From a virus (taxonomy: Duplodnaviria; Heunggongvirae; Uroviricota; Caudoviricetes): 64,000 nt of DNA. The stretch lies in IMG/VR virus record IMGVR_UViG_3300025073_000880. One strand, 5' to 3'. Of this stretch, positions 1 through 56,894 are shown piece after piece. Position 1 is the stretch's first letter. Each line of letters opens with the position of its first letter. The notes under the pieces are model-generated. The model made no database searches and was not told the DNA's origin. It saw nothing but the letters and a program-made list of their open reading frames with translations. A program made the position numbers and the translations under genes.

Positions 1-1633
1 ACTTGTGCCATAACACATCGTTTGTTTCTAAATCAGCGAACTCTGAAACATTAGTACTTTCAAATAAAGTAGGAGTATTTGTTGGTACATTTCTTTGCAA
101 ATCAGCTGCATCAAAATATAAAATATCTGTATTATTGCCACCTATCCAAACTACGACTGTTATCTTTCCACTCGCGGGGACAACAAACTCCTCTACAGAA
201 AACTGTTGAAACGAATCAGTCAAAGTCTTATTATCATAAAAATCACTCGCTGGCTCGGTAGTCGCTGGTGTATAAGACACCCACGCATTAGTTGTAAAAT
301 TGTAATACTGCGAAGCTGAACCTTTTGTATCATCAAATAAAGCTACCCTTGCTCTAGCATTAACAGAAGAAGCCCCGTCTTTTCGTGCGTAATATCTCAA
401 TCTATAAGTATGTCCTGCTGTAAGCCCTGATATAACTTGTTCAATATACGGTTGATCGCCTGATGTTCTGTATAGTTTAGCTGAATATGTACCTGCTTGA
501 ATGATTGTAGATTCTCTAATTATTCCAGCCTCAACACTATCAACTCCCCACAATCCCTCCGTCCAATTAGTTAAAGTGGTTGGTGTGGTTGCTGTCCAGT
601 TTTCAAACCCTCCATCTGTTGCTTGGTCTACTCCATCTATTTTTATCTGAACATTGTCAATATTAAGCAATGCCTCATTATCCCCAACCGAACCAATCAA
701 AATTTGAGAAGAAACAATCGCCCATGCAGGAGCTGTTACGATTGCTGAGCTTAACTCTGTATATGAACTAGTCGCTATAAGAATTTCAAAAATATTCTCA
801 TCAAATGTTGTTGACCATGTTCCAGCCAAAGCCCCAGTGGCATGATAATAATAATCATCAACGCCATCACCAGCTATTCTGATAACGAACATATTAGATG
901 TCCCTGACACTCTCTTGGCGTCAGCAATAACCTGAATAGTCTCGTCTGCCGCAAATGTAACAGCATTATCCAATAAGTTAGAAAAAAACATCCCTGCTAA
1001 AACTTCATCATACGCCTCATTTTGCACCGCATAAGAACCAGAACTACTATCTGCTGTTCTTGTTGTTTGATTTGCGACATCTCCGGAAATCGATTCTAGC
1101 GTCCAATCATCCGGCGTAAACAATCCTGTCGCATCCCATACTTCAACTCCACCATCAACCAAAACAGAAGTATCGTAATACTGCGGAACTTTTAATGCTC
1201 CGTATTTTAAATGTTTGGTGTCGGGTATTTTAATGTTTCGGCTATTACTAGGAGTGATGTCAGTCCCGTCATCACTCCAAAATTGATCTATATATGTTTT
1301 AAGGTCATCATACGTTTTTTTAGTAAATGATAATATCATTTCATACGTAGCCCCACCTGTGTTCTTTGTTGAGGCAGATGTGCTTTCCTGTGCCCTCGTA
1401 ACGGTTAAAGTATCAGTTGATCTAGCGGTACAACGAACAATTTCAACATTTGGGTCTAAAGTCGGATTGGTATAGTTGGTTGAGTCCCACCAAACTAAAT
1501 TAAAAGCACCACTGACAGACGGGTCTGGCAGTTTACTTCCATCACCTGTAGCTAATGTAATACTGGTGTCATCATTATCATAGCCACCATCTACACTAAC
1601 TTTGGCAAAATTTAATACTGGGTCTAAAACCAT
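1..1633 (-). CDS. Tail fibre / receptor-binding protein. Partial: the ATG is near 1631-1633 and the ORF runs off the window start. The C-terminal part resembles a carbohydrate-binding module (GFENWT.. pattern).
   Basis: Long uninterrupted minus-strand reading frame from the ATG at ~1633 to position 1. Gly/Thr/Ser-rich beta-type composition typical of fibre proteins. Not in the ORF track because it is incomplete. Confidence 0.45.
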   Translation of the reverse strand, partial: MVLDPVLNFAKVSVDGGYDNDDTSITLATGDGSKLPDPSVSGAFNLVWWDSTNYTNPTLDPNVEIVRCTARSTDTLTVTRAQESTSASTKNTGGATYEMILSFTKKTYDDLKTYIDQFWSDDGTDITPSNSRNIKIPDTKHLKYGALKVPQYYDTSVLVDGGVEVWDATGLFTPDDWTLESISGDVANQTTRTADSSSGSYAVQNEAYDEVLAGMFFSNLLDNAVTFAADETIQVIADAKRVSGTSNMFVIRIAGDGVDDYYYHATGALAGTWSTTFDENIFEILIATSSYTELSSAIVTAPAWAIVSSQILIGSVGDNEALLNIDNVQIKIDGVDQATDGGFENWTATTPTTLTNWTEGLWGVDSVEAGIIRESTIIQAGTYSAKLYRTSGDQPYIEQVISGLTAGHTYRLRYYARKDGASSVNARARVALFDDTKGSASQYYNFTTNAWVSYTPATTEPASDFYDNKTLTDSFQQFSVEEFVVPASGKITVVVWIGGNNTDILYFDAADLQRNVPTNTPTLFESTNVSEFADLETNDVLWHK

Positions 1634-1716
1634 AATAAAAACTCTACTATATAAAAAAAACAAAATAGAAATACTGAAAATACAGCATCTTTATTTTGTC
1701 TTCATAACTATTATCT

Positions 1717-1735
1717 ATATTATAACACAAGTCCT
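1717..1735 (-). promoter_or_regulatory. Conserved promoter-like motif, copy 1. Plus strand TATTATAACACAAGTCC; minus strand GGACTTGTGTTATAATA, an extended -10 (TGnTATAAT).
   Basis: An 18-20 nt motif found four times in the window. It sits ~85 nt upstream of the tail-fibre ATG on the minus strand. Confidence 0.45.
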
Positions 1736-1736
1736 A

Positions 1737-2435
1737 CTATTTATCCAATTTAAGCACATCAGGGACTTTAACCGTTAATTTATCCTTATCTACAATGGAA
1801 CGGTAGCCATCGTCGCAATAATTACAATTAGCTCGCCCATACTTTCTAACCCTATCCTCTTCGTGCATATAGCCATAATGGAATGTCGGAGCCGTAGAGT
1901 GGAAACGTGTATTTTTAGGTAAATTTATATAATTGCTAGGACAAGCATACCCAGCATATTTTGGAAGATAGGTTATATTTGGCTGCCATTTTAAAGCCCT
2001 TACATGGTGAATACTTTTAAACAAGCCATCATTCCTGAATGTATCCTCATTGTCCCACATGTATAAAAGCCTAAACCAAAATGTTTTTTTATCTTTATCT
2101 AGCCAAAAATTCATTAGCTGTTCTGACATGTTTTTTGGATAACACTCATCACTGTCAGGGAAAAGAACAATATCAGGCTTAATATCATCTAACATTCTAA
2201 TGGTATTATCTCGTTGTAACCCTTGATTCCATCTACCACCACTATTTATTGTTTCTATAATCTTGACAACGGATTTGTGTCCTTTGGCTATTTTTTTTAT
2301 TGTAGGTGTTGAATCATTAAGATTAACATAAACCCTATTTGTATATTTAGCCATATCATCCAACACTTTTTTTGCGTATTTATCATCATCGTGCAACATG
2401 ATACAACCTACAATATTTATACCTTTTAAATCCAT
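1737..2435 (-). CDS. Glycosyltransferase, family 2-like (GT-A fold).
   Basis: Acidic D-rich motif near the N-terminus and GT2-like length and composition. Lies within a cluster of sugar-modifying genes. Confidence 0.5.
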   Translation of the reverse strand: MDLKGINIVGCIMLHDDDKYAKKVLDDMAKYTNRVYVNLNDSTPTIKKIAKGHKSVVKIIETINSGGRWNQGLQRDNTIRMLDDIKPDIVLFPDSDECYPKNMSEQLMNFWLDKDKKTFWFRLLYMWDNEDTFRNDGLFKSIHHVRALKWQPNITYLPKYAGYACPSNYINLPKNTRFHSTAPTFHYGYMHEEDRVRKYGRANCNYCDDGYRSIVDKDKLTVKVPDVLKLDK

Positions 2436-2523
2436 ATAAACCTCTAAAAAAATAATTTAATGATATACTAATAATTACAGTGAAACATCGCTCACAGCTC
2501 AATTTTGGACCCCACAATCAACA

Positions 2524-3066
2524 CTATTCATTGGTTATTATGCCCATTCCTGCCGTCCCGTAGTTCAATGTAGCTCCATGGTATTTTGTTAAAAGCTCTG
2601 CCCAAAACTCAGGCACACCACACTTTTGGTTACAAACGTCGTGCAACAAAATTATCCCACCTTTTTTTACCAATGGTGCGTACATGGCGAAATCCTGTTT
2701 TACCCCATTATAACTATGGTCCCCGTCTATAAGTAAAACATCAAAAGATTCAGTACTAACACTATCAAAAACCTCAACCTTATGAGAATCTCCAGCTACT
2801 GCCGTCCAAAAATCGTGTAAGTCAACTGGTATCCTCTCTGAAGCGTTAGGCAAATCTATCGAAATAGACGTTAAATGCCCACATCCTTTTTCTTTTAGTG
2901 CGGATAAAATAGTTCTCGTTGACTGTCCTTGCCTTACCCCAATTTCCAAAACATTTATTTTTGGTTCTTTTTCCATTATTAGCTCATAAAGCATAAAAAC
3001 ATACGGTTGCATCGCTCTCTTCATTTTTTTCATTGACAATATAATGTCATTCATATTTTTTAGCAA
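2524..3066 (-). CDS. Class I SAM-dependent O-methyltransferase (CmcI/TylF-like, Methyltransf_24-type).
   Basis: LEIGVRQGQST (motif I) and IDGDHSY motifs. Confidence 0.6.
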   Translation of the reverse strand: MLKNMNDIILSMKKMKRAMQPYVFMLYELIMEKEPKINVLEIGVRQGQSTRTILSALKEKGCGHLTSISIDLPNASERIPVDLHDFWTAVAGDSHKVEVFDSVSTESFDVLLIDGDHSYNGVKQDFAMYAPLVKKGGIILLHDVCNQKCGVPEFWAELLTKYHGATLNYGTAGMGIITNE

Positions 3067-3448
3067 TTAGATAAGAGTCCCTTTTAATAAAATCACACTC
3101 TAATATGTTAAATTTATTTAATCTTTTAATTAAAAATGATAATCCCACAGGAGACATTCTCCAACAATCAATAGGATAATTATGCAATGGTCTGTCCCAC
3201 GGAACAAATAAAAGCACAAACCCATTTGATAATCTACCTATCTCTTCAGTTAATTTATAAATATCCTCTACATGCTCTAGTACATTCGCACATATCACAA
3301 TGTCAAATTCATTATCATTAAACGGATATTTATAGCCGTCATTAACAACAACATCGACATTATCTCCGCTAACTATATCTAAACCTGTATATGTCCATAA
3401 AGGATTCGTAAAATATCTGCGGAACACCATCCTCGGATGTTTAATCAT
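3047..3448 (-). CDS. SAM-dependent methyltransferase (type 11-like).
   Basis: DIVICANVLEHVED motif. Overlaps the downstream gene by 20 nt. Confidence 0.5.
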   Translation of the reverse strand: MIKHPRMVFRRYFTNPLWTYTGLDIVSGDNVDVVVNDGYKYPFNDNEFDIVICANVLEHVEDIYKLTEEIGRLSNGFVLLFVPWDRPLHNYPIDCWRMSPVGLSFLIKRLNKFNILECDFIKRDSYLIAKKYE

Positions 3449-3555
3449 CTAATTTTTGCTACCAACCTCTAAAATATTTAACCGTTTATTCCTAAAAGGC
3501 CTTAAATAGTTCCTGATAAATTCTTTCATTGTATATAATTGAATAAAGTCCATAA

Positions 3556-4398
3556 TTATCTATGTTTTAAACAGTGTGCACAAAGAGTATATTTATATCT
3601 TTCTCCTTTTAATAAATCTAAAAATGTTTCAATCACATTATCTGACTGCAAAATAGTGTTTAGCTCTTGTTTGTATAATGACCCAAAAACATGAATTCGC
3701 TTCCAGTCGTGGCAACAAATAATGACTTCTCCAAAAGCATTAATGGTTAAAAATTTTAATGGAGATGGGCAAGGACGTTTAATATTTATAGCCTTATCAT
3801 CAAGCCAACACATTTTATTGTTCATTTTTTTATCCATCGGATACCTTTGATAAGCCCGTAAAACCATTGAAACATTATCTCTTACTCGTAAAATCATTTT
3901 ATGGATTCGCCTCCCTTCTTCAGGGGAATAAACCGAAAAATTCAATCTATTGACTCTAAACTTATCCATTTCTTTTATTAGAGAATCATCCACATTAAAC
4001 CCATTGCTGTAAAGCCAAATCTTTGCCTTTGGAACATACTTTTCAATCAAAGTAAGTATATAAAAAAATCTTGGGTCTGCTAATGGTTCTGAATATAAAA
4101 ATGGATAAATTATTCCTTGAAAATCATGTTTGCCCAAAAGCTTTAAAATTTGTTCAATTATCTCTAAAGGTAAAGATTTTGGCTCTTTAATTAAACTAGC
4201 AGGACATTTTTTATGGAGTAACGCATAATTACAAACATTGGTTGTTTCTATTAAAACGTTTCCCGTATAAGCAAACGGATTTATCTGTAAGTTTTTTTTT
4301 ACTATTTCTTTGTCCATGTAATTATAATGGTAATAATGTTGGAGCGCATGCAGGGCATACTTTGCAAATACCACACTCATAACAATATTTCTTGCCAC
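3556..4398 (-). CDS. Fe-S / SPASM-like Cys-rich enzyme; radical-SAM-related is uncertain.
   Basis: C-terminal CxxC-rich segments (IICCHDW, CAHCLKHR) and an N-terminal TNVCNYALLHKKC, but no canonical CxxxCxxC. A separate 47-aa Cys-rich reading frame (4463 down to ~4320) overlaps the 5' end in another frame. Confidence 0.3.
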   Translation of the reverse strand: MARNIVMSVVFAKYALHALQHYYHYNYMDKEIVKKNLQINPFAYTGNVLIETTNVCNYALLHKKCPASLIKEPKSLPLEIIEQILKLLGKHDFQGIIYPFLYSEPLADPRFFYILTLIEKYVPKAKIWLYSNGFNVDDSLIKEMDKFRVNRLNFSVYSPEEGRRIHKMILRVRDNVSMVLRAYQRYPMDKKMNNKMCWLDDKAINIKRPCPSPLKFLTINAFGEVIICCHDWKRIHVFGSLYKQELNTILQSDNVIETFLDLLKGERYKYTLCAHCLKHR

Positions 4399-4469
4399 AC
4401 TTAGGGCATTTATAAAGAGCTATAAGCTTTTTACACTTTTTACATTTTTCCCTCTCTTTTGTCATATTA

Positions 4470-5147
4470 TTATCTTTCTTTATGATAAAAATGAAATGTT
4501 GGATTATCAGAATGAATTATACGAATTTTATTATCACTACCACCTATCTCAACAAGTTTCCAATCCTCAGCCTCTCCTCTACCAATAATTTCTAAAAGCT
4601 CCCAATCAAACGTAATTTTCCTTCTCGGTCTTGGCCTGAAATAACCATATTTATCAAAAAGCTCTTTTTTAATCATAAAGCTTCCAATGTCACATTGCTG
4701 AGGTTGCAATCTACATTTTAACCTGTGTCTGTAATCTGGATTTTTAACTCCAATAAATAAAAGGTCAGTCCCTATCATTGTGGCTCCAGGATAAGCCAAT
4801 GCCTCATCTGCCAACAGCTGTAAATGATTAGCCTCCCAAAAATTATCATCATCTAAAAAACAAATCCACTCGTTATTAAACTCCCTATATCTATCTTTTA
4901 AATACCCAAAAGATAACATTGCCCCAACATTTCTTGAAAAACCCCCATAATAATGAGTCCTAACGCCAAGGTCTATCCAATGTCTGCGAGGGTCAAGGCA
5001 TAACCCAGCTAACGTTGTTCTTAGCTCAGGATTATTGTCATTAATAATTAAATGTTCCCAATTTTGAAACGTTTGCTCGTCTAATGATTTTATTACGTTC
5101 TTCACTCCATCAGGACGCCACCCTGCTGTTACTACGCTTATCTTCAT
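4470..5147 (-). CDS. Glycosyltransferase family 2-like.
   Basis: KISVVTAGWRPDG N-terminus and FLDDDN (DxD) motif. Confidence 0.55.
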   Translation of the reverse strand: MKISVVTAGWRPDGVKNVIKSLDEQTFQNWEHLIINDNNPELRTTLAGLCLDPRRHWIDLGVRTHYYGGFSRNVGAMLSFGYLKDRYREFNNEWICFLDDDNFWEANHLQLLADEALAYPGATMIGTDLLFIGVKNPDYRHRLKCRLQPQQCDIGSFMIKKELFDKYGYFRPRPRRKITFDWELLEIIGRGEAEDWKLVEIGGSDNKIRIIHSDNPTFHFYHKER

Positions 5148-5149
5148 AA

Positions 5150-5647
5150 TTATAGTAGATTTATATGATTCTTAACCGCTATTGCACAATTAAATCTGTC
5201 TATATATACTGGATTAAATCCATAAGGAAAATTTAATTTTTTATCAACATCATGGACAATAAATGCAGAGGTAACAAAGTTGTTTAGTTTGTCTATTATC
5301 GCTTGATTGTGCTTATGTCCGGCATCTATAAAGACCACATCAACAGCATGTTTCCAGTTTTCTTGCATAAAATCTTTCCATGTCAGTTCTGCATTAAGAC
5401 TATATTCTGCTAATAGCTTTTTGGCATAATTTAGTCTATGATTCTTAATGTCATAACCCCATGCCTTATAATTTTTGGTGTCATTTGATTTGACAGCACT
5501 GATGCCGAATAGGGCAGTATATCCCCAACCAACTCCAATCTCTAAATAACTTTTTGCATCTATCGCAACCAAAAGTCCATACATCAAAATAGAAAGTCTT
5601 TCGGTATAAAACGGCTTACCTTTCTCTTTGTTTATGTTAGGTATCAT
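5150..5647 (-). CDS. Class I SAM-dependent O-methyltransferase (CmcI-like).
   Basis: LEIGVGWGYTALFG motif I and FIDAGHKH motif. Confidence 0.55.
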   Translation of the reverse strand: MIPNINKEKGKPFYTERLSILMYGLLVAIDAKSYLEIGVGWGYTALFGISAVKSNDTKNYKAWGYDIKNHRLNYAKKLLAEYSLNAELTWKDFMQENWKHAVDVVFIDAGHKHNQAIIDKLNNFVTSAFIVHDVDKKLNFPYGFNPVYIDRFNCAIAVKNHINLL

Positions 5648-5650
5648 AAA

Positions 5651-6310
5651 TTAATAATAACCGTTAAAATTAAATTTATGTCTTCGATAATATAACAATG
5701 GTTCATCTATGTGCTCATGAGTAGCCTTACCAAGTAATATCATTTGACGCCAAAGACCCCAATCTTCATGCAAACGTTTGCCTGTTTCTGTTTTTCTTAT
5801 AGCCTTATAGCCAAATTTTTTTGCTATATTCGCATTATAAAGAGACGACCCGTGGATAAAATTACTCCTATTTATTTTACCATGTAGAGATCTCATCCTC
5901 CAAATATAATAACCATGTTTTTTTTCCGTCTTCATCCCAGCCCTAGCACTTGCAACATCTGATCCCGTTATATACATATCAGAAGAAACAATGTCAGCGT
6001 CAACATTTGACATAAGCTCCAACGCATCGGGTCTAAGCCAATTATCAGCCCCAAGATACATTACATACTCAGTAAAGATATGGTTCATTAAAATATCATT
6101 AAAGTTATCTAATGTCCCCATGTTTTTTTCTCGTTTCATCACGTCAACACCATACCGTGAAGCTGTTTCACACATACCATCATCAGAAGCATCATCAACT
6201 GCTAAAATCCTTTTTGGCAGTACCGTTTGTGATAAAACAGAATCAATCGCGTGCGCAACTAAATGTCCATAATTATACCCCACAATAACAACAGTTATTT
6301 CTTTTTTCAT
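5651..6310 (-). CDS. Glycosyltransferase family 2.
   Basis: ITVVIVGYNYGHLVAHAIDSVLSQT and VDDASDDG motifs, the canonical GT2 N-terminus. Confidence 0.65.
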   Translation of the reverse strand: MKKEITVVIVGYNYGHLVAHAIDSVLSQTVLPKRILAVDDASDDGMCETASRYGVDVMKREKNMGTLDNFNDILMNHIFTEYVMYLGADNWLRPDALELMSNVDADIVSSDMYITGSDVASARAGMKTEKKHGYYIWRMRSLHGKINRSNFIHGSSLYNANIAKKFGYKAIRKTETGKRLHEDWGLWRQMILLGKATHEHIDEPLLYYRRHKFNFNGYY

Positions 6311-6795
6311 AAATATCTGCGTAACCTTTGAAACCTTGAATCATCACCCCGCCTTACAGAAAATGCCTCTTTATATCCCAACTCTTCAACGGCCTTTAAA
6401 CATAAATCATTAAACTTCCCATAAGGATATGCGACATAATCCATTGGGAATGGAGGCGTTAATTCTTTTAGTATATCCCTATAAGATAATCTTGTTAAAT
6501 TTGGATGTGACCACGTATGCCAACCAAGCTTAGTCCCATTATTAACAAGGCTTTCTATTTGTTTCCATGTACAAAACCTTTCAAATGGCTGACCAACATC
6601 GAACGAATTATCTCCACCAACATAATTACCCATAACAAAAATAATAACATCTTTTTTACAAATAATTTTTCTATGTCTCCAAACATTTTCGTAAACACCA
6701 TCAAAGGTTAATTGCCCTTCAGCTTTTTTAATTTCTTTTGATGTATTATAGTTACTAGTTAATTTCTCTCCAATATTATGGCAAAGATAAGTCAT
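6307..6795 (-). CDS. Polysaccharide deacetylase (NodB homology domain).
   Basis: HTWSHPNLTRL, the NodB His-x-x-Ser-His motif. Confidence 0.65.
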   Translation of the reverse strand: MTYLCHNIGEKLTSNYNTSKEIKKAEGQLTFDGVYENVWRHRKIICKKDVIIFVMGNYVGGDNSFDVGQPFERFCTWKQIESLVNNGTKLGWHTWSHPNLTRLSYRDILKELTPPFPMDYVAYPYGKFNDLCLKAVEELGYKEAFSVRRGDDSRFQRLRRYL

Positions 6796-7306: not shown

Positions 7307-8639
7307 TTATTATTGATTTTTTACGCTCATCAAGACCTGGAACAAACTCACACCTAATAATTTTATATCCCAATACTCTACTAAACAGTTGAATTAAAAC
7401 GTCCATGGTAAAAGCAACTTTATGCGAAACCTCTCTAATAGTACTTGGGCGTGATAACCCATCAGGCACAATTATACCTAAAATTCCGCCAACCTTTAAT
7501 ACACGGCTCCATTCTAACAGTGTCTTTTTGGTATCAACCATATGCTCTAAATTATGACAAGCAACTAAGGCATCAAGTTCTCCATCTTCAAAAAACCATA
7601 AGTCATCACCATTAGCTATTATATCAGCTGCCGACCCGGGGTAAGTATCAATACCAATACAATTGGGATGACACTTTTCAGTCCCACAACCAACATCAAT
7701 ACATTTACCAGTTTTGCAATATTCGCCAAGTAAATATCTTTGATTAAACTTTCTTTTTGTTTCTTGTTCTGATTGGACACCTGTATCCAATCCCCAATAG
7801 CTTAAACGCTTATTGTGCTCAGGTTGGTCTTCAGGATGATTAATTTCCATTGGGATATTTGTCTTTGGATCAATGGTTGGATACGGCTTTTGTTCTCCCT
7901 GATTAACTCTTTCTTTTGAATATGTTAAATATTCATTGAAATCTTTTTCATAACCTTTGTTCTCCCACATAAACCCCGTGTGATTCGCATATAAATGGAC
8001 AGCCATCCCAAACTTCTTTTTTAATGTTTTCATTGCGTCAGCATAACTATGGGACTCCCAATGCTTCCGATGACCAAACGGAGCATCTCCCAAAAGCGAT
8101 AAATCTGATTTTTTCTGCATTCTAAAAACAGATGGCATTGTTTTATTATTTCTAATTATTTTATCAGTTTCAATCCACTCGGCTCTCTTCGTCCTCTCTA
8201 TCCTCATACAAATAGACCCGTAATCAGGATAATGCTCATTAAACAAATGTTGCAACCGCTCAAGCCAGCATGGCCTTAAATCTGGTGGAAGTAAATCATC
8301 TTGTGTTGTAACAAAAACATCGGATTTAACATGCTTAAATCCTTCATTTAAAGCCTCTGGTTGACCCACATTTTCTGGCATCCAAACAATTTTATCAACA
8401 AGACCCAAAACTTCAGCATGCTTTAAAAAATCTTTAGTAGAATCAGTCGAAGCGTTATCTATAACAATAATCCTATGAGGGTAAAATGTTCTTTCCTTAA
8501 TGCTTCTAATCGTTTGTTCTAAAAACCGTCTACGCTGATATGTTACTAAGAGAATGTCTATTGGTTCTCGAGGTAAATCTTTGGAGTTAAAAGATACCTC
8601 TCTTACTTGACTATCTTGTTGATTTGTTTCTTCATCCAT
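7287..8639 (-). CDS. Two-domain protein: N-terminal GT2 glycosyltransferase plus C-terminal SAM methyltransferase.
   Basis: IDILLVTYQRRRFLEQTIRSI...IDNASTD (GT2). Further along, IDVGCGTEK...LEHMVD...LKVGGILGI (MTase type 11). Confidence 0.6.
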   Translation of the reverse strand: MDEETNQQDSQVREVSFNSKDLPREPIDILLVTYQRRRFLEQTIRSIKERTFYPHRIIVIDNASTDSTKDFLKHAEVLGLVDKIVWMPENVGQPEALNEGFKHVKSDVFVTTQDDLLPPDLRPCWLERLQHLFNEHYPDYGSICMRIERTKRAEWIETDKIIRNNKTMPSVFRMQKKSDLSLLGDAPFGHRKHWESHSYADAMKTLKKKFGMAVHLYANHTGFMWENKGYEKDFNEYLTYSKERVNQGEQKPYPTIDPKTNIPMEINHPEDQPEHNKRLSYWGLDTGVQSEQETKRKFNQRYLLGEYCKTGKCIDVGCGTEKCHPNCIGIDTYPGSAADIIANGDDLWFFEDGELDALVACHNLEHMVDTKKTLLEWSRVLKVGGILGIIVPDGLSRPSTIREVSHKVAFTMDVLIQLFSRVLGYKIIRCEFVPGLDERKKSIIIVGKKR

Positions 8640-14198: not shown

Positions 14199-15095
14199 CT
14201 ATCCGAGCAAACTTGTAGAACTTGAAGTACTTGAGCTTGTAGAACTTGTGGTACTTGAGCTTGTGCTTGAGCTTGTGCTTGAAGTACTTGAAGATGTAGA
14301 GCTTGTAGAGCTTGAGGTACTTGAAGACGTAGAGCTTGAAGTACTTGAGCTTGTAGAGCTTGAAGTACTTGAAGACGTAGAGCTTGAGGTACTAGAACTT
14401 GTAGAGCTTGAGGTACTTGAAGACGTAGAGCTTGAAGTACTTGAGCTTGTAGAGCTTGAGGTACTAGAACTTGTAGAGCTTGAGGTGCTTGAGGTGCTTG
14501 ATAAATACGTATTACTTGGAACAATGATTGATTTTCTAACCTCCCCAAAGTTTAATAGGTTAATATAAAAAGCATCATTTGCTACATTAGAAAAATATAC
14601 AGGGAGTAAAACCTGCTTTGGGAATGTGGTATTATGCTCTGCAACCTTACGTTTATCATCACCATTGCCAATCCAAAATTCAACACGTTCTATTCTTGTC
14701 CGAACCTCAAAAGAAGTTGGTGTATTTGTCCATGTTGCATCCCACGGAACAGTTGTCTGTTCTGGGGTTGCACTATCATCGTTATAAGATCTAACGTAAA
14801 AATTAGTTCCACTGATAAAAAAGTACGCAGCATTCCGATTCCCGAATGCTTTTGAATATAAACCAAAAACTCGAGAATCTCCGCCTGTTGGGGCTGTCGG
14901 CACAGTAAGCTTCATTTCAAAGTTACCGTGCATAAACACCCTGAGGGTACTAATACTGGCAGTGTGTAATCTAATTTTCCCGTCCAAAACTTTCGCATCG
15001 CCACTAAACCTTCTCAATTCTGTTGTGTCGAATCCTGAAAGATATGGGTCATAGAGAAAGTGATAACGATCACTAACTGTTTTTACGTGTGCCAT
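14199..15095 (-). CDS. Virion or surface protein: N-terminal beta-rich domain plus a long C-terminal (SSST)n Ser/Thr tract.
   Basis: About 100 residues of SSSTSSSTSSS... encoded by the 12-nt tandem repeat at 14215-14515. Confidence 0.45.
   Translation of the reverse strand: MAHVKTVSDRYHFLYDPYLSGFDTTELRRFSGDAKVLDGKIRLHTASISTLRVFMHGNFEMKLTVPTAPTGGDSRVFGLYSKAFGNRNAAYFFISGTNFYVRSYNDDSATPEQTTVPWDATWTNTPTSFEVRTRIERVEFWIGNGDDKRKVAEHNTTFPKQVLLPVYFSNVANDAFYINLLNFGEVRKSIIVPSNTYLSSTSSTSSSTSSSTSSSTSSSTSSSTSSSTSSSTSSSTSSSTSSSTSSSTSSSTSSSTSSSTSSSTSSTSSSTSSTSSSTSSSTTSSTSSSTSSSTSLLG
14215..14515. repeat. Tandem 12/24-nt repeat (agagcttgaagt-like units) encoding poly-Ser/Thr.
   Basis: Visible periodicity. 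All three frames on both strands give low-complexity ORFs. Confidence 0.8.
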
Positions 15096-15734: not shown

Positions 15735-16460
15735 CTATTCAATCTCGCCAATAGCAGCAACATAGCCAGTAACCGAAGTCGCATCAACCATGTAAACAAC
15801 TAATTCGTAACCATCTTGTGTAGTAATAATCCCCTCACCAGAAGCAAAATTTTTGTTTGTCACCGCTGCATCTGCAGGAGTGCTTGAATACAAAAGGTTT
15901 TCAATAGAACCCTTTCGTTCATAAACACGCAATCCTTGAGAATCTACGCCACCACCAAAAGTAATGTTGTATTCAATCTCTCTAAGATGAACACGCATTG
16001 ATCCTTTTGGTTTACTCTCACCAACAGTTCTTGTTTTAGTGACACAAACAGCCATGTAATCAGCCGCACTTGTGTCAACTTTAACATCGTAATAAGAAAC
16101 ACTATCAACAACCGTAGCAGAAATAGCACCGTCAACAAACTGTGTTGCAGTCGTCTCGGAAAGCAATGTATCAAGAACAATACAATCCCAATAAGCACTC
16201 ACATCAATAACCGCCTTCAATTTTGCAACGGTGTCATAAGTGGCAAATGCCCATGTTTCAGTCCCACCACTAGCCGAAATAGCAACAATGCTTGTGCCTG
16301 TTGTAACTGTTACGGAAGTAACAGCACCAGCCGCAGCTGTCGGTCTAAGGCGAAGGGCAATACCCTCATCGTCATAAATTTGCTGTACAAAGCCTTTTTT
16401 AGAAAGACTTCGCATTTGCAATGAATCTAAAGAAGCCATAATAAATTGTTTTAAAGCCAA
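15735..16460 (-). CDS. Hypothetical virion protein, immediately downstream of the capsid gene.
   Basis: Ala/Thr/Val-rich beta-type composition, adjacent to the capsid gene. Confidence 0.3.
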   Translation of the reverse strand: MALKQFIMASLDSLQMRSLSKKGFVQQIYDDEGIALRLRPTAAAGAVTSVTVTTGTSIVAISASGGTETWAFATYDTVAKLKAVIDVSAYWDCIVLDTLLSETTATQFVDGAISATVVDSVSYYDVKVDTSAADYMAVCVTKTRTVGESKPKGSMRVHLREIEYNITFGGGVDSQGLRVYERKGSIENLLYSSTPADAAVTNKNFASGEGIITTQDGYELVVYMVDATSVTGYVAAIGEIE

Positions 16461-16574
16461 TCACCCGTGGCTGTTTCGGGCCATATGTCAAAGCATATAG
16501 GCGGGAATGATTTTACGTCACATCCCCGCTTACGACGCCTAATAAATTAGGATATGTAAGAGAACTAATTTGAG

Positions 16575-17232
16575 TTAGTCAGTTACACCTTTAAGCAAAG
16601 CACAAAGTGGGCTTTGTTTTCGTTCCAAACCAGCTTCAGTAATGAACTGGTCAATCTCTCCATCAACATCAGGGGCCTGAACGTTCATCATGAGCTTAGT
16701 GTCACGATTCGCCATAAAGCGATATCGGAAACAATTAAGATCAAGCAAGAACGCATAGCCTGAATATTCTTCAACAAACAATGGATTGTGCACGATGTTG
16801 ATTGAACCAAATGGGGTCATGTACTCACTGATTTCCAAACCGTAAGATTTATCTCCTGTTTTGGTTCTCAGCTGACCACGAGCCATTTCATTTATTGCCT
16901 GCAAAACAACACCACCACACATTAATACTTTTTGGTTATCACCATAAGTGAAGCCTTCTCGTAAAAATGTGTTAAAGTCTGGAGCTGTTAATGGGCCACC
17001 TTGATTTTGAACAAATCCTGTACCACCCTCAATAAATTCAAGGAGACCACCTGTAGTTCGTAACGGTTTACTGTTACTACCTGTAGTAGAAGCTTTTTCA
17101 CCCCAAATGAAAGCTCGTTCAATATCAAGGGCATGTTCAGTCGCCTTTTTGGCTCTTTGATAAACCAAGTCTGGGCCACCGTACAAATTAGCATTCTTCT
17201 CTGTGTCAGAAACACCAATGGTCGTTTTAAAT
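16575..17232 (-). CDS. Major capsid protein, last exon. The frame is open back to ~17232.
   Basis: Capsid-like C-terminal segment (..FMANRDTKLMMNVQAPDVDGEIDQFITEAGLE). The frame stays open upstream of the TTG listed in the track, right up to the intron D core. Confidence 0.6.
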
Positions 17233-17235
17233 ATT

Positions 17236-18258
17236 TGCTTTATATTGCATCAATAATGATGGGTAAACATCTCTGTTTACCACTATATGTCACCATATAG
17301 ACTCGACTATATCTTCACAAATGTGTGTTCAACGTATAGTCTGTGAGAATTTAACTATTAAATTTATACCGTATAGATAATGGTACACCATTAAAATATT
17401 GGCTATGCGATAATAACGACAAGAACTTAAACGATGGTTTTTTATTTAATCTAATACGATAATACATTCTATCACCACCATATACCCCTTTAACTGGAAG
17501 TATTTTAACCTCTATATTAAATTTTTGCCAAAACCACTTTTTTATACCTTTAACTTCAGATAATGTATAACTATCAGTACAAATAATTATAGAGTCATTT
17601 GATTTTATATAAGATCCATCGTCAAGATACCAAAATAATAAAGAATCCTCATCTAACAAGTTTAACCCACGTCTTGTTATATATCTTTTTTTATTTCTAT
17701 AAAAAATTCCATATATGTTAGTTAAGCTTGGATGAGAAATAGAGTGAGTATGATATTGAATATTACCGTTATTGTTATACCTATTAACATTATCTTGTAA
17801 AAAAATTTCATTCAACAATTGCTTCTTAAACAAGAGATAATCTAATTGCTTTTCACAATGACATAGTGACAATCTATGAAAACCGTCAGTTTGTAATATC
17901 AATGATGAATCACCCAATAATGTGCCGTAAATAATTGACATTTTCTCTTTTGATATACTTTCACCTTTTAATGTTCTAGCCTTAGAATAACTTTTATTTG
18001 TTTTTCTAGGTCTTCTGTCGTTATAATTTTTATAAACACATTTTTTTGAACAAAATATTTTATCTTTTCTATTTTGATAAAATAGTTTGTTGCACTGTTT
18101 ACAATTAATATACATAGTTATCTTTTCTGCTGATTGTCTCTATGTGTAAAATTCTTAGGGTTCGCTAGTAGTTTTCACCGCCTAGTATCCTATTTACACC
18201 ATAACAAGATATCCCAGCATATAGTTGAATTTTACTATACCCAAATTTTTATTAAAGT
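17236..18258 (-). mobile_element. Group I intron D in the capsid gene, carrying a LAGLIDADG HE ORF. Boundaries approximate.
   Basis: Core at 17284-17347 on the minus strand: CACAGACUAUACG (P7 5'), a P8 hairpin, AAGAUAUAGUCGAGUC (P7 3') and a P9 hairpin. This is near-identical to the Tetrahymena intron P7 strands CAGACUAAAUG and AAGAUAUAGUCGGACC. Confidence 0.7.
17351..18115 (-). CDS. Homing endonuclease: N-terminal zinc finger plus LAGLIDADG-type motif (LLGDSSL).
   Basis: CKQCNKLF...CSKKC zinc finger; IYGTLLGDSSLILQTDG. Sits inside intron D. Confidence 0.55.
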   Translation of the reverse strand: MYINCKQCNKLFYQNRKDKIFCSKKCVYKNYNDRRPRKTNKSYSKARTLKGESISKEKMSIIYGTLLGDSSLILQTDGFHRLSLCHCEKQLDYLLFKKQLLNEIFLQDNVNRYNNNGNIQYHTHSISHPSLTNIYGIFYRNKKRYITRRGLNLLDEDSLLFWYLDDGSYIKSNDSIIICTDSYTLSEVKGIKKWFWQKFNIEVKILPVKGVYGGDRMYYRIRLNKKPSFKFLSLLSHSQYFNGVPLSIRYKFNS

Positions 18259-18261
18259 ATA

Positions 18262-18608
18262 GTTGGTCAGCGGAGAGGATTGTGTAGTGTTAATGTTCTT
18301 AGCACTTGAATTTTCCTCATTCGCATTACCAATCAAGAACAAACCATCACCATCAGCTCCAGCAGCAGCCGCAGTCGCACCGAGCGAACGGCCACCTGAA
18401 GCAATAGTAATTGTTGTTGCACCAGCAATCGTAGCTACAAGCATTCTTTCACCAGTTCTGGCGTTAAGAATAACGTCACCAACCGTGAAAATATAAGCCG
18501 AGCTAGACCCAGCACTAGTTACAGTAATTGTTACACCACCTGAAGCGGAATAAGTTCCACTTACCTTTGCGTAACGTCCGCCATAAAAATCTTCGCATTT
18601 GTTAACCC
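18262..18608 (-). CDS. Major capsid protein, internal exon (~115 aa).
   Basis: Open frame ...CEDFYGGRYAKVSGTYSASGGVTITVTSAGSSSAYIFTVGDVILNARTGERMLVATIAGATTITIASGG..., bounded by the intron C 3' core and the intron D 5' end. Confidence 0.55.
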
Positions 18609-18609
18609 A

Positions 18610-19330
18610 TAATTGGGTATTACATCATTTCTGTGTAATTCTCGTGATATCGCACGAGGTCGGACTATATCATCATCCATAAGGATGTTTAACGTGTAGT
18701 CTCTGAGGTTTCTACTTTAATACCTACTTGATTTAATTCCTTCATCTGGTCAAATAATGATTTTTCTTCATCACTATATCCTTGTTTTATTATCCCAAGA
18801 ACACGACCAGTTTTAGAATCTCTCTCAGCCTTAGACTTATAATAACTCCTAGATTCTAAGAATCTTAAAAGTAATTCAGCCCTTGGCTTTTTTGAAATCA
18901 GATACGGTAGCATCAATTTTGTTATCACCTTAACGTCTTCCATTTTATTGACCGTTATGTGATAAGCTTTTTTATGATTAGGTTTTCTAGATGTTGTTTC
19001 TTGCCAAATGTGACCATTGATGCCAGATGCATCAAATATTTTTATAATCTCATTTATCATTACTACATCGGTGTTAGATAGAGTTATTCTTGGAACATAT
19101 CGTTTATTAGTATCATATACTATGGTGAATGTTCCCTCTCCATCCCATACGCCCGCTAACCATGCAATTTGATGTGTAGTTACCTGCTGATTGACCATTG
19201 TATTATTCATAATATTTTTACTTAGTAGTAATTATGACTTTAGGTTATTCCAGCAAATAGTTAAATTTTTAGTGGTCCGAGAATTTTCTAAACCACTTCA
19301 TTGAAGCTTGTTACCAGACTTACTCTGGGG
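18610..19330 (-). mobile_element. Group I intron C carrying a LAGLIDADG HE. The 5' boundary is uncertain (19211-19335).
   Basis: Core at 18640-18708: CAGAGACUACACG ... GAUAUAGUCCGACC plus the P9 hairpin CUCGUGCGAUAUCACGAG. Confidence 0.65.
18689..19210 (-). CDS. LAGLIDADG homing endonuclease.
   Basis: WLAGVWDGEGTF motif. Inside intron C. Confidence 0.75.
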   Translation of the reverse strand: MNNTMVNQQVTTHQIAWLAGVWDGEGTFTIVYDTNKRYVPRITLSNTDVVMINEIIKIFDASGINGHIWQETTSRKPNHKKAYHITVNKMEDVKVITKLMLPYLISKKPRAELLLRFLESRSYYKSKAERDSKTGRVLGIIKQGYSDEEKSLFDQMKELNQVGIKVETSETTR

Positions 19331-19334
19331 CATA

Positions 19335-20033
19335 TGCCTCTATATATCGCTATATAGATCAGACTATATCTTTACTACCACCTATTATTTCTAAAGGGGT
19401 AGACGCTTTGCGTCTAGTCGTTGAGGGCAAAATTTGATAATGCTTAAGATATCTAAGAGATTCTTCGAACTTTTTATCAATAGACTCAAACTGCTCTTTC
19501 TTAATTTTAGAGCACAGTGTACCATTAACATTTCTCTTTTGAAACATTGATAGTCTATACTCTATGTATTCGAGTATTTTTTTAGCTTGTCTTTTTTTGT
19601 TAGAGTGCAATTTATCTATTATTGCATCTAGTATTTTTTTAGTTGATCTATATCCCTCTACGTTAATAGACAGATAATCCATTGCATTGACAAACTTTTT
19701 ATTAGGAGTATGAAGAGTAAAATAAAATTTAGCTCCAAGCACATAAAATATTTCAGAAACCTTCTTTATCAATTCAACATCAGTATTACCAACACCTATC
19801 CTTGTAATAAACGAATATTGTCCATTACCATTGTTTCTTTTCTTATGAACTCCTTGACGTTTATTGGTTGTTAAATATCCCTCTCCATCAATAATTCCGG
19901 CCAACCAAAAAAAGTCACTATCATTAATCATATATTTTATTTTTTCCCTGCTGATTGTCCGCACTAATAGATTTTTACTAATCAGTACTATTAGATACTC
20001 GGAGTTTCCAGCATATAAGCAAAGTTTTTGTTA
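19335..20033 (-). mobile_element. Group I intron B carrying a LAGLIDADG HE. Boundaries approximate.
   Basis: Core at 19340-19425: ACGACUAGACG (P7 5'), P8 GACGCAAAGCGUC, AAGAUAUAGUCUGAUC (P7 3'), P9 UAUAUAGCGAUAUAUA. The HE stop codon lies within the P7 3' strand. Confidence 0.65.
19359..19964 (-). CDS. LAGLIDADG homing endonuclease.
   Basis: WLAGIIDGEGYL motif. Confidence 0.75.
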   Translation of the reverse strand: MRTISREKIKYMINDSDFFWLAGIIDGEGYLTTNKRQGVHKKRNNGNGQYSFITRIGVGNTDVELIKKVSEIFYVLGAKFYFTLHTPNKKFVNAMDYLSINVEGYRSTKKILDAIIDKLHSNKKRQAKKILEYIEYRLSMFQKRNVNGTLCSKIKKEQFESIDKKFEESLRYLKHYQILPSTTRRKASTPLEIIGGSKDIV

Positions 20034-20278
20034 AACCAGAGTCCAAGTGGATTTTTTAAACTCTGGGTTGCCTGTTTCCTTTTTAAGAATACCAGCTCCC
20101 GTCCAAGCCTTACCATCATACACTTTACCAACAGTAGTCAGTAAGGTTGTAAGCGGATGCTTGCGAGGTTCAAGTAAGAAGACTTTATCAACGGCATCCA
20201 CTACTAATCGCTGCTCAGTAGATGACGTTGAAGTATCTCTAGCAGCAGAAGCCACCGCCCCCTGATTGTGGGTCAATC
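20031..20278 (-). CDS. Major capsid protein, N-proximal exon (~80 aa).
   Basis: ..AVASAARDTSTSSTEQRLVVDAVDKVFLLEPRK.. frame. The TTG start in the track is preceded directly by TGA and by the intron A 3' end, so the exon is entered by splicing rather than by initiation. Confidence 0.5.
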
Positions 20279-21210
20279 AATGTTTACTTTATATCTCTAT
20301 AAAGATCGGACTATATCTTAATCCCAAAGGATTCACAACGTTTAGTCTCTGAACGTCTATTAATAAAATCAATTATTCTACTTTGTTTTCTGAATATAGT
20401 GAAAAACAAACCGTGATCAATAAACGATTCTACTCTTATCCCAAAACAGATTAACACCTTTTTTCTACCAGAAGAGAAATTACGTTCTATTTTTAATGTT
20501 TTTACACCTAATTTTTCTAAAAAGTCTTTAAACTCTAATATCCAACTACCCTCAGTTTTGCCAACACCAATTCTATATTGAATGTTTTCCTTATCTGGTC
20601 TCAAAGTTTTAGATATCCACCCATCACCATCCATCACTCCTGCGATAAAATGTTTTTTTATCACATCTGGTGCACGCCATATGACAAAGGGTATATGCGT
20701 TTTCTTGTTTGTCTGCTCCCAAAATATATCTTTTAACTTTTTAAACCCAACATTTATACAGTATTGTACTTGTGTTTTTGACACGTGACCGTTTGGCCAA
20801 TGCCTGTCTATCGGCTCGAGGCGATTAATATTCGCACGACAAGACGGTATTAACAGTTTTATACAAGCAAGTGTTCTATCTGCAAACTCAATGTCTATCG
20901 TCCTTAAAGAAAAATTATAATAATATCCATATTTATCTTTACTTTTAGATATACACCCATCAGTAAGATAAACTCCAAACAAATAGGCTAATTCTTTATT
21001 AATATTCTCGCTGCTGATTTTCTCTAAATCCATATTTTTACTCTTAGGTAATGAATTTCTAACAAGAATTTCCAGCATTTTGTTGTTTTCCAATATTACC
21101 CTCCGTGCATTACTGCACGGGTGCCCACCCATTTTTAGGCTCGCTATAATATGGAAATTGTGCCATATAAAATCTTTAAACCATAATCCCAATACCTTGA
21201 AATGAGATTA
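20279..21210 (-). mobile_element. Group I intron A carrying a double-motif LAGLIDADG HE. Its 5' end abuts the stop of the scaffold-like ORF.
   Basis: Core at 20288-20356: UCAGAGACUAAACG ... AAGAUAUAGUCCGAUC plus the P9 hairpin CUUUAUAGAGAUAUAAAG. Confidence 0.7.
20311..21132 (-). CDS. Single-chain LAGLIDADG homing endonuclease with two motifs.
   Basis: GVYLTDGCIS and FIAGVMDGDGWIS. The track ORF extends to 21192 via TTG and in frame to the scaffold stop. The internal Met (MGGHPCS) at ~21132 is the more likely start. Confidence 0.7.
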   Translation of the reverse strand: MGGHPCSNARRVILENNKMLEILVRNSLPKSKNMDLEKISSENINKELAYLFGVYLTDGCISKSKDKYGYYYNFSLRTIDIEFADRTLACIKLLIPSCRANINRLEPIDRHWPNGHVSKTQVQYCINVGFKKLKDIFWEQTNKKTHIPFVIWRAPDVIKKHFIAGVMDGDGWISKTLRPDKENIQYRIGVGKTEGSWILEFKDFLEKLGVKTLKIERNFSSGRKKVLICFGIRVESFIDHGLFFTIFRKQSRIIDFINRRSETKRCESFGIKI

Positions 21211-22056
21211 AAAAGAATTTGGATTACTAGGTCCTCCAATAAAATCGTCAATGGTTGGAGTCTGTGATGGCATTCGACCACCTTGAGACCCTCCGCCACT
21301 AGCGTTTAAGGCGTTACCTTTAGCTATTTCGGCTTCCTCTTTTTCTTTATCCTTAACCGCCTTTTGGGCTTCATTTTCACCCTTAACCGCATAGTAAGCC
21401 ACATTAATGTCATAAACATCAGGATGGTCTTCAAGCCATTTGGTTATTGCGTCTGCGTATTCAGGAAAATCGCTTGTCGTATTGATAAAACTTTCAACGC
21501 TTTTTTCAAAGCTTCGCTTTTCTTCAATTTCAGAAATGTTATGAGTAAGGTCTTTTTCGACCTTAGACATTTTTTCCTGCATTTTTTTCTCAACAAGCTC
21601 CTCAATCGCATCGGAATTTAAAGTTTCAAGCTTTTTATCCCCCAATTCTTTTTTCACCTCTTTATAGGCACTAGTCATTGTGGTTGCATCTTCTTTATTA
21701 ATTTTACCACTTAAAACATCCTGTAATAAACTGGAGTTAATCTTGTCATCCAAGATAGCCTCAGCTAATTCAGGGTCGCTGTGAAGCTTTTCTAATAGGG
21801 GTGATATTTCATTGAAGAATTTTCTAAGGTCTCCAAGTTCACCACCCTGCTCAGTAAGCTTCTCAACTAAATTTTCGTAGTCAGTCTTAGGGACATAATC
21901 ACTAAGATTAACATCTTCCTTCTTTTCACCTTCATTGTTAGCGTTTGAAGACGGTTCGGGCTGCCTGCCTAAATCATTTGGCGATTTAGGTAGATCCGAG
22001 ACAGGGGCTCCCACGTCTTTGTTTGTGGACTCTGTGTTGTTTGCTTCTTTAGCCAT
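21208..22056 (-). CDS. Scaffold-like acidic coiled-coil protein. It may be the N-terminal delta domain / exon 1 of the capsid gene.
   Basis: 282 aa, rich in Glu, Lys and Asp with coiled-coil heptads. Its TAA stop is in frame with, and directly followed by, intron A. Confidence 0.45.
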   Translation of the reverse strand: MAKEANNTESTNKDVGAPVSDLPKSPNDLGRQPEPSSNANNEGEKKEDVNLSDYVPKTDYENLVEKLTEQGGELGDLRKFFNEISPLLEKLHSDPELAEAILDDKINSSLLQDVLSGKINKEDATTMTSAYKEVKKELGDKKLETLNSDAIEELVEKKMQEKMSKVEKDLTHNISEIEEKRSFEKSVESFINTTSDFPEYADAITKWLEDHPDVYDINVAYYAVKGENEAQKAVKDKEKEEAEIAKGNALNASGGGSQGGRMPSQTPTIDDFIGGPSNPNSF

Positions 22057-22446
22057 AAGTTTACTTCATAATTAATAATTACTTAGACAAAATATATTGT
22101 AAAAAACAAATGAACTCACTATTGTTCGCTAGAAATAGTCTGCTTCCTTTCTGCCAGTTTTTTCGCTAAATTACCCAAATTAATATCACCACCAGATTTT
22201 TCTTTTAACTTTTGCTCTTTCAGTTTATCTCCGATTAAAGAGACTATTTTCCCCGTGATAACATTCTTCATAGTTTTTTTATAAATTATTTAATACATTT
22301 TTTTACCACCAACACCACCATATCGATCAACCATTTTTCTAGCCAGCTTGTTTTTCTTTTTACGAACATCCATAGACTCTTTAAGCCTGCCTTCAACCTT
22401 AGATGACATGGCTGTCCTTGGCATATTGTCATACATCATAAATTAT

Positions 22447-46960: not shown

Positions 46961-47240
46961 TTTATATTGCTGTTAGCGTCTTCAATTATTTTATATAACA
47001 AGACCCATTTTCTTTGAAAATAGAATTTCAATTTAATTGCTGTTAGGGTCTTAATGAATTTTAAATGTGCGAGCGAGTGGGGATTGAACCCACGACCAAC
47101 GGCCTGAATGCTTTTTAGTTGCTGTTAGTGTCTTACAAGACACATTTTTACGTTGCTCTACCACTGAGCTATCGCTCGCATAACACGACGCATTTTGACA
47201 AAGTAAGAATTTGTTTTGCTGTATTGCTGTTAGCGTCGTA
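46961..47240 (-). repeat. Four copies of the minus-strand motif GACNC-UAACAGCAA, each with a covarying partner stem. One copy is inside the tRNA-like RNA. Y-RNA-like module array.
   Basis: Copies at 46964, 47037, 47122 and 47226 (plus strand TTGCTGTTAGNGTC). Partner pentamers covary: GACGC/GCGTC, GACCC/GGGTC, GACAC/GUGUC, GACGC/GCGTC. Confidence 0.55.
47069..47180 (-). ncRNA. tRNA-like Y-RNA candidate (YrlA-like). It has canonical acceptor, D and T arms, but ~50 nt replace the anticodon loop.
   Basis: Acceptor CGAGCGA/UCGCUCG with G-1:C73; D arm GCUC-AGUGGUA-GAGC; T arm GUGGG-UUCAAUC-CCCAC. The anticodon-position stem (C)AACG/CGUU(G) encloses a hairpin GUGUC-UUGUAA-GACAC followed by UAACAGCAA. 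Lies between rsr and rtcB. Confidence 0.5.

Positions 47241-54370: not shown

Positions 54371-56894
<2,524 letters not shown>

Follow-up and report, generated by a model that had tools for sequence, protein, structure and literature searches.

Phage capsid genes interrupted by several group I introns have already been published, and the case presented here extends them to another phage lineage. In the crAss-like Zeta-group phage OLRF01000054, which is of metagenomic origin, the capsid gene is split into five fragments. Group I intron domains are encoded by three of the four intervening segments, and the same study shows a LAGLIDADG endonuclease within a gene block of crAss-like phages (Yutin et al. 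2021, PMC7886860). In Staphylococcus phage Twort, orf142 contains three introns of subgroup IA2 and a 23-nucleotide (nt) exon, and shows exon skipping (Landthaler and Shub 1999, as related in PMC10136302). A group I intron with a LAGLIDADG (I-CreI-like) open reading frame (ORF) is found in the capsid gene of mycobacteriophage LittleE, and its splicing was shown in late expression (Pope et al. 2013, PMC3706429). In Jug phages the mean number of group I introns per genome is 18.5 (PMC12880540), and very short exons between group I introns are known from organelles (PMC5436844, PMC12308204). The present analysis concerns a locus in IMG/VR virus record IMGVR_UViG_3300025073_000880 (Caudoviricetes), of which a stretch of 64,000 nt (hereafter the window) was analysed. 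Very probably, this locus is one capsid gene invaded by four mobile group I introns, each accompanied by a LAGLIDADG endonuclease gene.

As in the crAss-like Zeta group, the capsid gene is split by four segments. However, the phage belongs to another lineage with a genome of ~93 kb as opposed to 145–192 kb, and no crAss-like phage is among the tblastn matches of the capsid protein in 50,697 phage records. Furthermore, the introns in PMC7886860 were recognised via protein domains, whereas here the RNA structure, the exact junctions and an 8-nt exon are resolved. Set against Twort orf142, the gene has four introns instead of three, its short exon comprises 8 nt instead of 23, and the introns are not IA-like. 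LittleE is similar in the U before the 5′ splice site and the G at the intron 3′ end. In contrast, its intron is single, the endonuclease lies on the opposite strand, and the phages and capsid families are unrelated. An earlier note on this DNA, made from the letters alone, had called four introns in one structural gene extreme for a phage; given the capsid gene in PMC7886860, Twort orf142 and the Jug phages, this wording is too strong.

The major capsid gene occupies positions 21166–16575 of the minus strand and comprises five exons (E1–E5) and four group I introns (I1–I4). The junctions were set by protein alignment alone, and the RNA features were compared with them afterwards. The exons and the predicted spliced junctions are:

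21166–21137, minus strand: E1, 30 nt, with the ATG at 21166; encodes MAQFPYYSEP, in agreement with homologue N-termini (e.g. P0002, MAQFPYYTEP)
20273–20058, minus strand: E2, 216 nt, residues 11–82, from alignment to homologues
19298–19291, minus strand: E3, 8-nt micro-exon AAGTGGTT, encoding K83, W84 and two thirds of F85
18595–18256, minus strand: E4, 340 nt, residues 85–198, from alignment to homologues
17237–16575, minus strand: E5, 663 nt including the stop codon, residues 199–418, from alignment to homologues
Predicted junction E1/E2: AGCGAGCCT/ACCCACAAT
Predicted junctions E2/E3/E4: CCAGAGTTT/AAGTGGTT/CGAAGATTTT
Predicted junction E4/E5: AACTATACT/CAAATATTT

Joined together, the exons form a frame of 1257 nt which encodes 418 amino acids. 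They are free of frameshifts and stops, and the residues that are invariant among homologues are kept. The spliced protein is 72% identical, at 99% coverage, to many uninterrupted proteins of 413–423 residues. Compared with 60 homologues the junctions are gapless and the conserved motifs are regained (YYSEP/THNQG, NPEF/KW(F)/EDFYG and NYT/QIFK, slashes marking the joints). Inclusion of E3 restores the conserved NPEFKWFEDFYG, again without a gap in any of the 60. The Pfam family SU10_MCP (PF17236) matches residues 21–413 of the spliced protein with 172.1 bits against a cut-off of 24.1 (E = 2.5e-50), and PDB matches include 9in6_M (E = 7e-27) and SU10 7z45 (E = 5e-4). Judged by these homologies, the gene product is an SU10-type major capsid protein with the HK97 fold. 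Two other boundaries were rejected: a 6-nt E1 (ATGGTT at 21184), for which the homologue alignment showed that the N-terminus was missing, and an E5 start 10 nt earlier, at 17247, which adds four residues (FNIK) found in no homologue.

The introns amount to 3.3 kb compared with 1.26 kb of coding sequence, and gene callers give fragments only, namely a 203-residue SU10_MCP piece and small ORFs. The earlier note had proposed that the segments join into one capsid protein and had suggested capsid homology of the joined exons as a check; both are supported by the 418-residue product and its matches. The segments which it listed are exons indeed, but E1 and E3 were missed, there are five exons rather than three, and its boundaries were off by 5–27 nt.

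The introns and their core elements, including the guide strand of P10 and the internal guide sequence (IGS), are located as follows:

21136–20274, minus strand: I1, 863 nt; P10 guide UGGGU at 21131–21127, IGS GGGC at 21126–21123, terminal G at 20274
I1 core, minus strand: P2 hairpin 21120–21103; P3 21086/20339; P4 21077/21017; R-P8-S-P9 20356–20287
20057–19299, minus strand: I2, 759 nt; P10 guide CCACUU at 20050–20045, IGS GGACUCUGG at 20044–20036, terminal G at 19299
I2 core, minus strand: P3 20024/19411; P4 20013/19954; core 19425–19340; P9.1 and P9.2 hairpins
19290–18596, minus strand: I3, 695 nt; IGS GACCACU at 19277–19271, forming P1 with the micro-exon; terminal G at 18596
I3 core, minus strand: P3 19265/18693; P4 19255/19190; core 18708–18640; P9.1 and P9.2
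18255–17238, minus strand: I4, 1018 nt; P10 guide AUUUG at 18246–18242, IGS GGUAUAGU at 18241–18234, terminal G at 17238
I4 core, minus strand: P3 18229/17333; P4 18219/18133; core 17347–17284; P9.1 and P9.2

In all four introns a U precedes the 5′ splice site and a G ends the intron. P1 is composed of the exon end and the IGS: GCCU/GGGC in I1 (4 bp), CCAGAGUUU/GGACUCUGG in I2 (9 bp), AGUGGUU/GACCACU in I3 (7 bp) and ACUAUACU/GGUAUAGU in I4 (8 bp), with the exon-end U in a U·G wobble. The P10 guide strands lie directly 5′ of the IGS and form UGGGU/ACCCA in I1 (5 of 5 pairs), CCACUU/AAGUGG in I2 (6 of 6), UUCUCG/CGAAGA in I3 (5 of 6, with one mismatch) and AUUUG/CAAAU in I4 (5 of 5). P1, P10, the U·G pair and the terminal G coincide exactly with the junctions dictated by the protein.

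Each of the four introns contains the P (UGCUGG), Q (AAUCAGCAG), R (GACUA) and S (GAUAUAGUC) elements; S is given as AAGAUAUAGUC in the Tetrahymena-type comparison. The R strands of I2 (CAACGACUAGACG) and I4 (CACAGACUAUACG) fit the core-strand consensus put forward in the earlier note only loosely. P3 to P9 follow each other in canonical order. The sequences of P3, P6, P8 and P9 are unlike among the four introns while complementarity is kept, as illustrated by the P3 strands ACAAC/GUUGU, CUUUGC/GCAAAG, UUUAAC/GUUAAA and UUCAAC/GUUGAA of I1 to I4, respectively. At the sequence level, P7 consists of N-(bulged A or C)-GACUA with UAGUC-N′. The G-C pair next to the bulge is invariant and the pair beyond it covaries (G-C, A-U, C-G). 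A GNRA-type loop is present on P9 in three of the four introns, and the peripheral P2, P5 and P9.x elements differ. Since the space between P7 and the 3′ strand of P3 is too short for P7.1/P7.2, the introns are not of the IA type. With canonical group I introns (RF00028, e.g. the Tetrahymena large-subunit intron) they share P/Q/R/S, the P7 bulge beside a G-C pair, the U·G pair of P1 and the terminal G. Unlike these, they score only 35–37 bits (below 50), have an ORF inserted in P6 and possess variable peripheral domains.

The Rfam model RF00028 (Intron_gpI), whose gathering score is 50 bits, was run in E-value mode and matches all four introns: I1 at 20287–20414 (37.2 bits, E = 7e-7), I2 at 19340–19513 (36.3 bits, E = 1.3e-6), I3 at 18641–18868 (35.2 bits, E = 2.8e-6) and I4 at 17283–17405 (36.0 bits, E = 1.5e-5, whole-window run). 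In this mode no further group I match is found in the 64-kb window. Within the gene, the minus strand carries three exact copies of the S-element decamer AGATATAGTC and a fourth with a single mismatch. Allowing at most one mismatch, the window holds 10 copies compared with 3.65 expected, and 10 was reached in 0 of 100 shuffles. The sole other exact copy (57746, plus strand) lacks an R element beside it and was dismissed as chance. Taken together, the RF00028 matches and the placement of the decamer argue that the four cores are real, and they lie where the earlier note had seen them on the minus strand (~20356–20287, 19425–19340, 18708–18640 and 17347–17284).

Mini-introns from which the P6 loop had been deleted fold P4-P5, P8, P9 and P9.1/P9.2 and, in addition, one of P3 and P7; relative to shuffled sequences, their z-scores range from −2.3 to −4.1. 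Covariation was assessed in a gapless helix-only alignment of seven introns (the four of the window and three from relatives), in which the helix strings were placed on unique 12-nt linkers. MAFFT alignments of the real core segments or of short-linker helix strings were dropped because P8, P9 and P10 were misaligned. In the seven introns, standard pairs fill 97.6% of the cells, compared with 70% in column shuffles and 33–43% in slid controls. Compensatory changes are observed in 27 of the 42 pairs, covariation extends to each of the five P10 columns, and every intron (7/7) has the U·G pair at its splice site.

The fragments reported by the gene callers could also be read without any intron, as the result of inteins, free-standing endonuclease genes between capsid fragments, programmed frameshifts or mis-assembly. 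The probability of such a reading is practically negligible. Stop codons interrupt the exon frame within the intervening sequences, the exons do not share one frame, exons of 30 and 8 nt cannot be independent genes, and the group I cores, P1/P10 and the terminal G are exactly in place. Inteins were rejected on account of the stop codons in frame after each exon and of ORFs devoid of a Hint domain; group II introns were rejected because a reverse transcriptase ORF was not seen in any of the four. The window belongs to a complete-looking phage genome of ~93 kb, and over 16400–22200 no difference is found between two independent assemblies of 92.8 kb and 65 kb (100% identity). Furthermore, an identical portal protein is encoded on at least 22 contigs from several samples. 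The identity of independent assemblies and the recurrence of the contigs rule out mis-assembly and indicate that the four introns are fixed in this population.

Each intron contains a LAGLIDADG ORF, as the earlier note had stated and as searches with Pfam, PHROGs, PDB and BLASTP bear out:

21132–20311, minus strand: I1 endonuclease ORF, double-motif LAGLIDADG (LAYLFGVYLTDG, HFIAGVMDGDG); alternative starts at 21078 and 21033
19964–19359, minus strand: I2 endonuclease ORF, single-motif LAGLIDADG (FFWLAGIIDGEGY; LAGIIDGEGY)
19210–18689, minus strand: I3 endonuclease ORF, single-motif LAGLIDADG (IAWLAGVWDGEGT)
18115–17351, minus strand: I4 endonuclease ORF, double-motif LAGLIDADG (IIYGTLLGDSS, LLFWYLDDGSY); N-terminal Cys-rich stretch

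Two of the proteins (I1 and I4) are thus of the double-motif kind, where the note had counted one. All four ORFs are intact and the acidic LAGLIDADG residues are kept. The I1 protein matches Pfam LAGLIDADG_3 with 32.3 bits (threshold 22.5). The I3 protein matches LAGLIDADG_3 (30.3 bits) and LAGLIDADG_1 (26.7 bits) as well as LAGLIDADG endonucleases in the PDB (E = 5e-4). The I4 protein reaches 103 bits with LAGLIDADG_2 (threshold 25) and matches I-SceI (E = 4.4e-7). It is similar to I-SceI-type LAGLIDADG proteins but divergent, with its additional N-terminal Cys-rich region. For the I2 protein, PHROG 5046 is matched (E = 2.7e-8) and the identity to the I3 endonuclease is 31% (E = 3.6e-9). In IMG/VR protein searches no relatives of the I2 and I3 endonucleases were found. 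We note that phrog_5046, which matches 18689–19210 and 19359–19964, is labelled ‘HNH endonuclease’ although it fits proteins with LAGLIDADG motifs and Pfam LAGLIDADG matches; the label looks wrong. By homology, all four ORFs are predicted to have homing-endonuclease activity.

The endonuclease ORFs (520–820 nt) are inserted in P6 and extend into the 3′ core. The stop codon of the I1 ORF lies in the S element, that of the I2 ORF in the 3′ strand of P7 and that of the I3 ORF in the 3′ strand of P3; moreover, the start of the I3 ORF precedes the Q element.

According to the favoured reading, the primary transcript would carry four ribozymes, each of which would fold and pair its IGS with the last 4–9 nt of the upstream exon to form P1. 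A guanosine cofactor would cut at the U·G pair, the P10 guide would align the downstream exon, and the exons would be ligated after the terminal G. Loss of the four introns would join 30 + 216 + 8 + 340 + 663 nt and give the 418-residue capsid protein. The endonucleases presumably cut intron-less capsid alleles of related phages in co-infection, and repair would copy the intron in (homing). Gene structure, RNA elements with their covariation, protein homologies and the presence or absence in relatives are observed; from these sequences we infer splicing, its independence of protein help, and homing.

E3 participates in two pairings: six of its bases (AAGUGG) pair with the P10 guide of I2 and seven (AGUGGUU) with the IGS of I3. 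As P10 of I2 and P1 of I3 use the same bases, the two pairings are mutually exclusive. P10 is dispensable in many group I introns, so that either I2 or I3 could in principle splice first. E3 is only 8 nt long because I2 and I3, which are distributed independently, occupy neighbouring sites. Indeed, an I2-like intron without I3 is found in a relative, L031, and an I3-like intron without I2 in another, L019. Among the phage cases found in the literature an 8-nt exon is unusually short.

These pairings also bear on the autonomy of the ribozymes. The introns could be real but dependent on a protein cofactor, either their own LAGLIDADG protein acting as a maturase or a host factor, with I2 and I3 spliced in a fixed order. 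This would be in line with the competition of the I2 P10 guide and the I3 IGS for the same 6–7 exon bases, with the P1 of just 4 bp in I1 and with the endonuclease ORFs which reach into the ribozyme cores. In addition, some LAGLIDADG proteins are maturases (I-AniI, bI3 maturase), as in fungal mitochondria. On the other hand, the cores are complete, the helices are well maintained, the mini-intron folds are stable and there is no sequence sign of protein dependence; to our knowledge, characterised phage group I introns self-splice. We consider the need for a cofactor to be quite improbable.

Skipping of E3 would shift the reading frame. Between I2 and I3, neither the P3 nor the P6 strands are cross-complementary (P3, CUUUGC/GCAAAG vs UUUAAC/GUUAAA), and this dissimilarity should disfavour the hybrid fold which leads to exon skipping (PMC10136302); in this respect I2 and I3 are set against Twort orf142. 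A decaying gene, in which one or several introns no longer splice or E3 is skipped, would leave a defective element without functional capsid protein. In support, transcripts were not seen, Twort orf142 shows skipping across its 23-nt exon (PMC10136302), and E3 skipping amounts to a frameshift. Such decay is nevertheless very improbable: the exons are open, the invariant residues are kept, and the ribozyme elements and the four endonuclease ORFs are intact. Furthermore, several samples yielded the identical locus, on at least 22 contigs in all, and P3 and P6 differ between I2 and I3.

Among relatives, the capsid gene is uninterrupted in 73 of 80 metagenome loci and in most IMG/VR loci. Single introns are present in five loci (L019, L211, L219, L222 and L224), L031 has two, and L021/L022 (IMG/VR contigs of 86.5 and 89.5 kb; locus at ~470–6546) have four, probably five group I introns in the capsid gene. 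The L021/L022 introns are located at residues ~47, 198/199, 221/222 and 236/237, plus a probable one near the N-terminus, and two of their endonucleases are encoded on the opposite strand. One of these introns, L021b, occupies the I4 site (NYT/QIF) and is homologous to I4; its endonuclease, on the opposite strand, shares 46% identity with the I4 protein. Retention of the conserved Q would place the end of L021b at an A, not a G. Another one, L021a (1811–2666), encodes an endonuclease 40% identical to that of I1 but sits at a different capsid site, EP/NK at residue ~47 as opposed to EP/TH at 10/11; GAR-CCU precedes both. In total, there are about nine insertion sites in the capsid family, the window included, and homing would explain the patchy spread of related introns over them.

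The second intron of L031 shows ~70% nucleotide identity to I2 and has a homologous endonuclease. Applying the U·G and terminal-G rules, the splice site in L031 (intron at 7466–8185) is found 2 nt upstream of the I2 site, and that in L019 (5153–6003) 1 nt downstream of the I3 site; the R element of the L019 intron was not identified. The IGS and P10 sequences of both shifted introns are altered to match. From these sequences, the offsets of 1–2 nt between homologous introns look like splice-site sliding.

On a wider scale, the R/S core motif is present in at least 119 IMG/VR stretches. One unrelated viral contig, L079 (IMG/VR 3300037067_001909), has four R/S core matches within 4 kb (1195–4994) on one strand and may represent another multi-intron gene.

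A joint reading may be considered which combines the endonucleases as a weapon, a forced splicing order of I2 and I3, and offsets brought about by sliding or reverse splicing. As a whole it appears possible but improbable. By analogy with ΦPA3, four endonucleases may cut the intron-less capsid gene of rivals at four places, while the introns disrupt the targets in the carrier's own gene. In ΦPA3, an intron endonuclease was demonstrated experimentally to interfere with a co-infecting phage (Birkholz et al. 2024, PMC11620839). Common to both systems are an intron endonuclease in an essential gene and an intron that shields the allele of the carrier. However, ΦPA3 has one intron, a different endonuclease and a different gene, and a competitive role in the present case is speculation. 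A set splicing order of I2 and I3, arising from the shared E3 bases, may delay or gate capsid production. The 1–2-nt offsets may then mean splice-site sliding or spread by reverse splicing and not homing alone.

Several observations weigh against a capsid gene with four active introns and have to be set beside the evidence in its favour. All four RF00028 scores are below 50 bits, and a default scan of the window at the gathering threshold finds none of the introns, only two transfer RNAs (tRNAs). The Rfam scan suggested in the earlier note thus recognises all four cores (E ≤ 1.5e-5), but below the gathering score. The long ORF inserted in P6 and the divergence of P2/P5 are difficult for the model to align and probably account for the low scores. 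In I1 the P1 helix is limited to 4 bp, and in I3 one of the P10 positions is mismatched. The strands for the covariation analysis were picked by hand, with positional rules for P1, P10, P3, P4, P6 and P7 and as local hairpins for P8 and P9, and the covariation count is therefore partly circular. The overlap of the endonuclease ORFs with the core (P4, P7 and the 3′ strand of P3) means that translation could disturb folding. Neither Pfam nor PDB gives a match for the I2 endonuclease, whose LAGLIDADG membership therefore depends on weaker evidence (the motif, its likeness to the I3 protein and the PHROG match). Finally, the collections yielded neither a spliced transcript nor an intron-less allele from this phage; the best hit in a set of 5.8 billion protein sequences is 72% identical, and the metagenome contigs contain no exact copy of the spliced E2-E3-E4 32-mer.

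The capsid gene is located downstream of the terminase, an SU10/P22-type portal gene and a scaffold-like ORF. The latter is:

22056–21208, minus strand: upstream ORF, 282 residues; separate gene, not part of the capsid gene

The span given in the earlier note, up to 22056, takes in this ORF as well. The ORF has no family match in Pfam or PHROGs and probably encodes the scaffolding protein, given its place between portal and capsid genes. A megablast search of the locus against the 50,697 phage records gave no match, and a scan for promoters and terminators detected no more sites than in shuffled sequence. Just downstream of the capsid module, a 298-residue ORF (14199–15095, minus strand) ends in ~110 residues of Ser/Thr repeats (SST/SSST), with mirror repeats on the opposite strand and in other frames.

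Elsewhere, phage genes encode GroEL (Cpn60; 54371–56023, minus strand, and neighbours; 5128–5457 in L024) and a Cpn10 (GroES-family) co-chaperonin. Further genes encode an RNA ligase, a C5 cytosine methylase, a radical SAM protein and a primase-polymerase/DnaB helicase fusion. The Pfam match of the 714-residue RtcB RNA ligase (47297–49441, minus strand) is split, with LAGLIDADG_3 at residues 288–341; the insert is probably an intein with a homing endonuclease. Directly 3′ of the RtcB gene lies a tRNA-like gene (47069–47178, minus strand) which scores 47.6 bits with the Rfam tRNA model (gathering score 29). Its anticodon arm comprises 49 nt versus 11 in the model, owing to a ~38-nt insertion with a hairpin, and it is not called by ARAGORN.

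The locus offers a resolved example of the load that mobile introns place on an essential phage gene, with four ribozymes and four endonuclease genes, and explains the failure of gene callers to detect the capsid protein in genomes of this kind. The 8-nt exon, common to P10 of one ribozyme and P1 of the next, constitutes a natural test of how tandem group I introns avoid exon skipping. Current understanding is unchanged by the finding, which is clean and instructive and holds no surprise for the specialist. Beyond the single gene, the capsid family is an intron hotspot and is useful for the study of intron spread among uncultivated phages.

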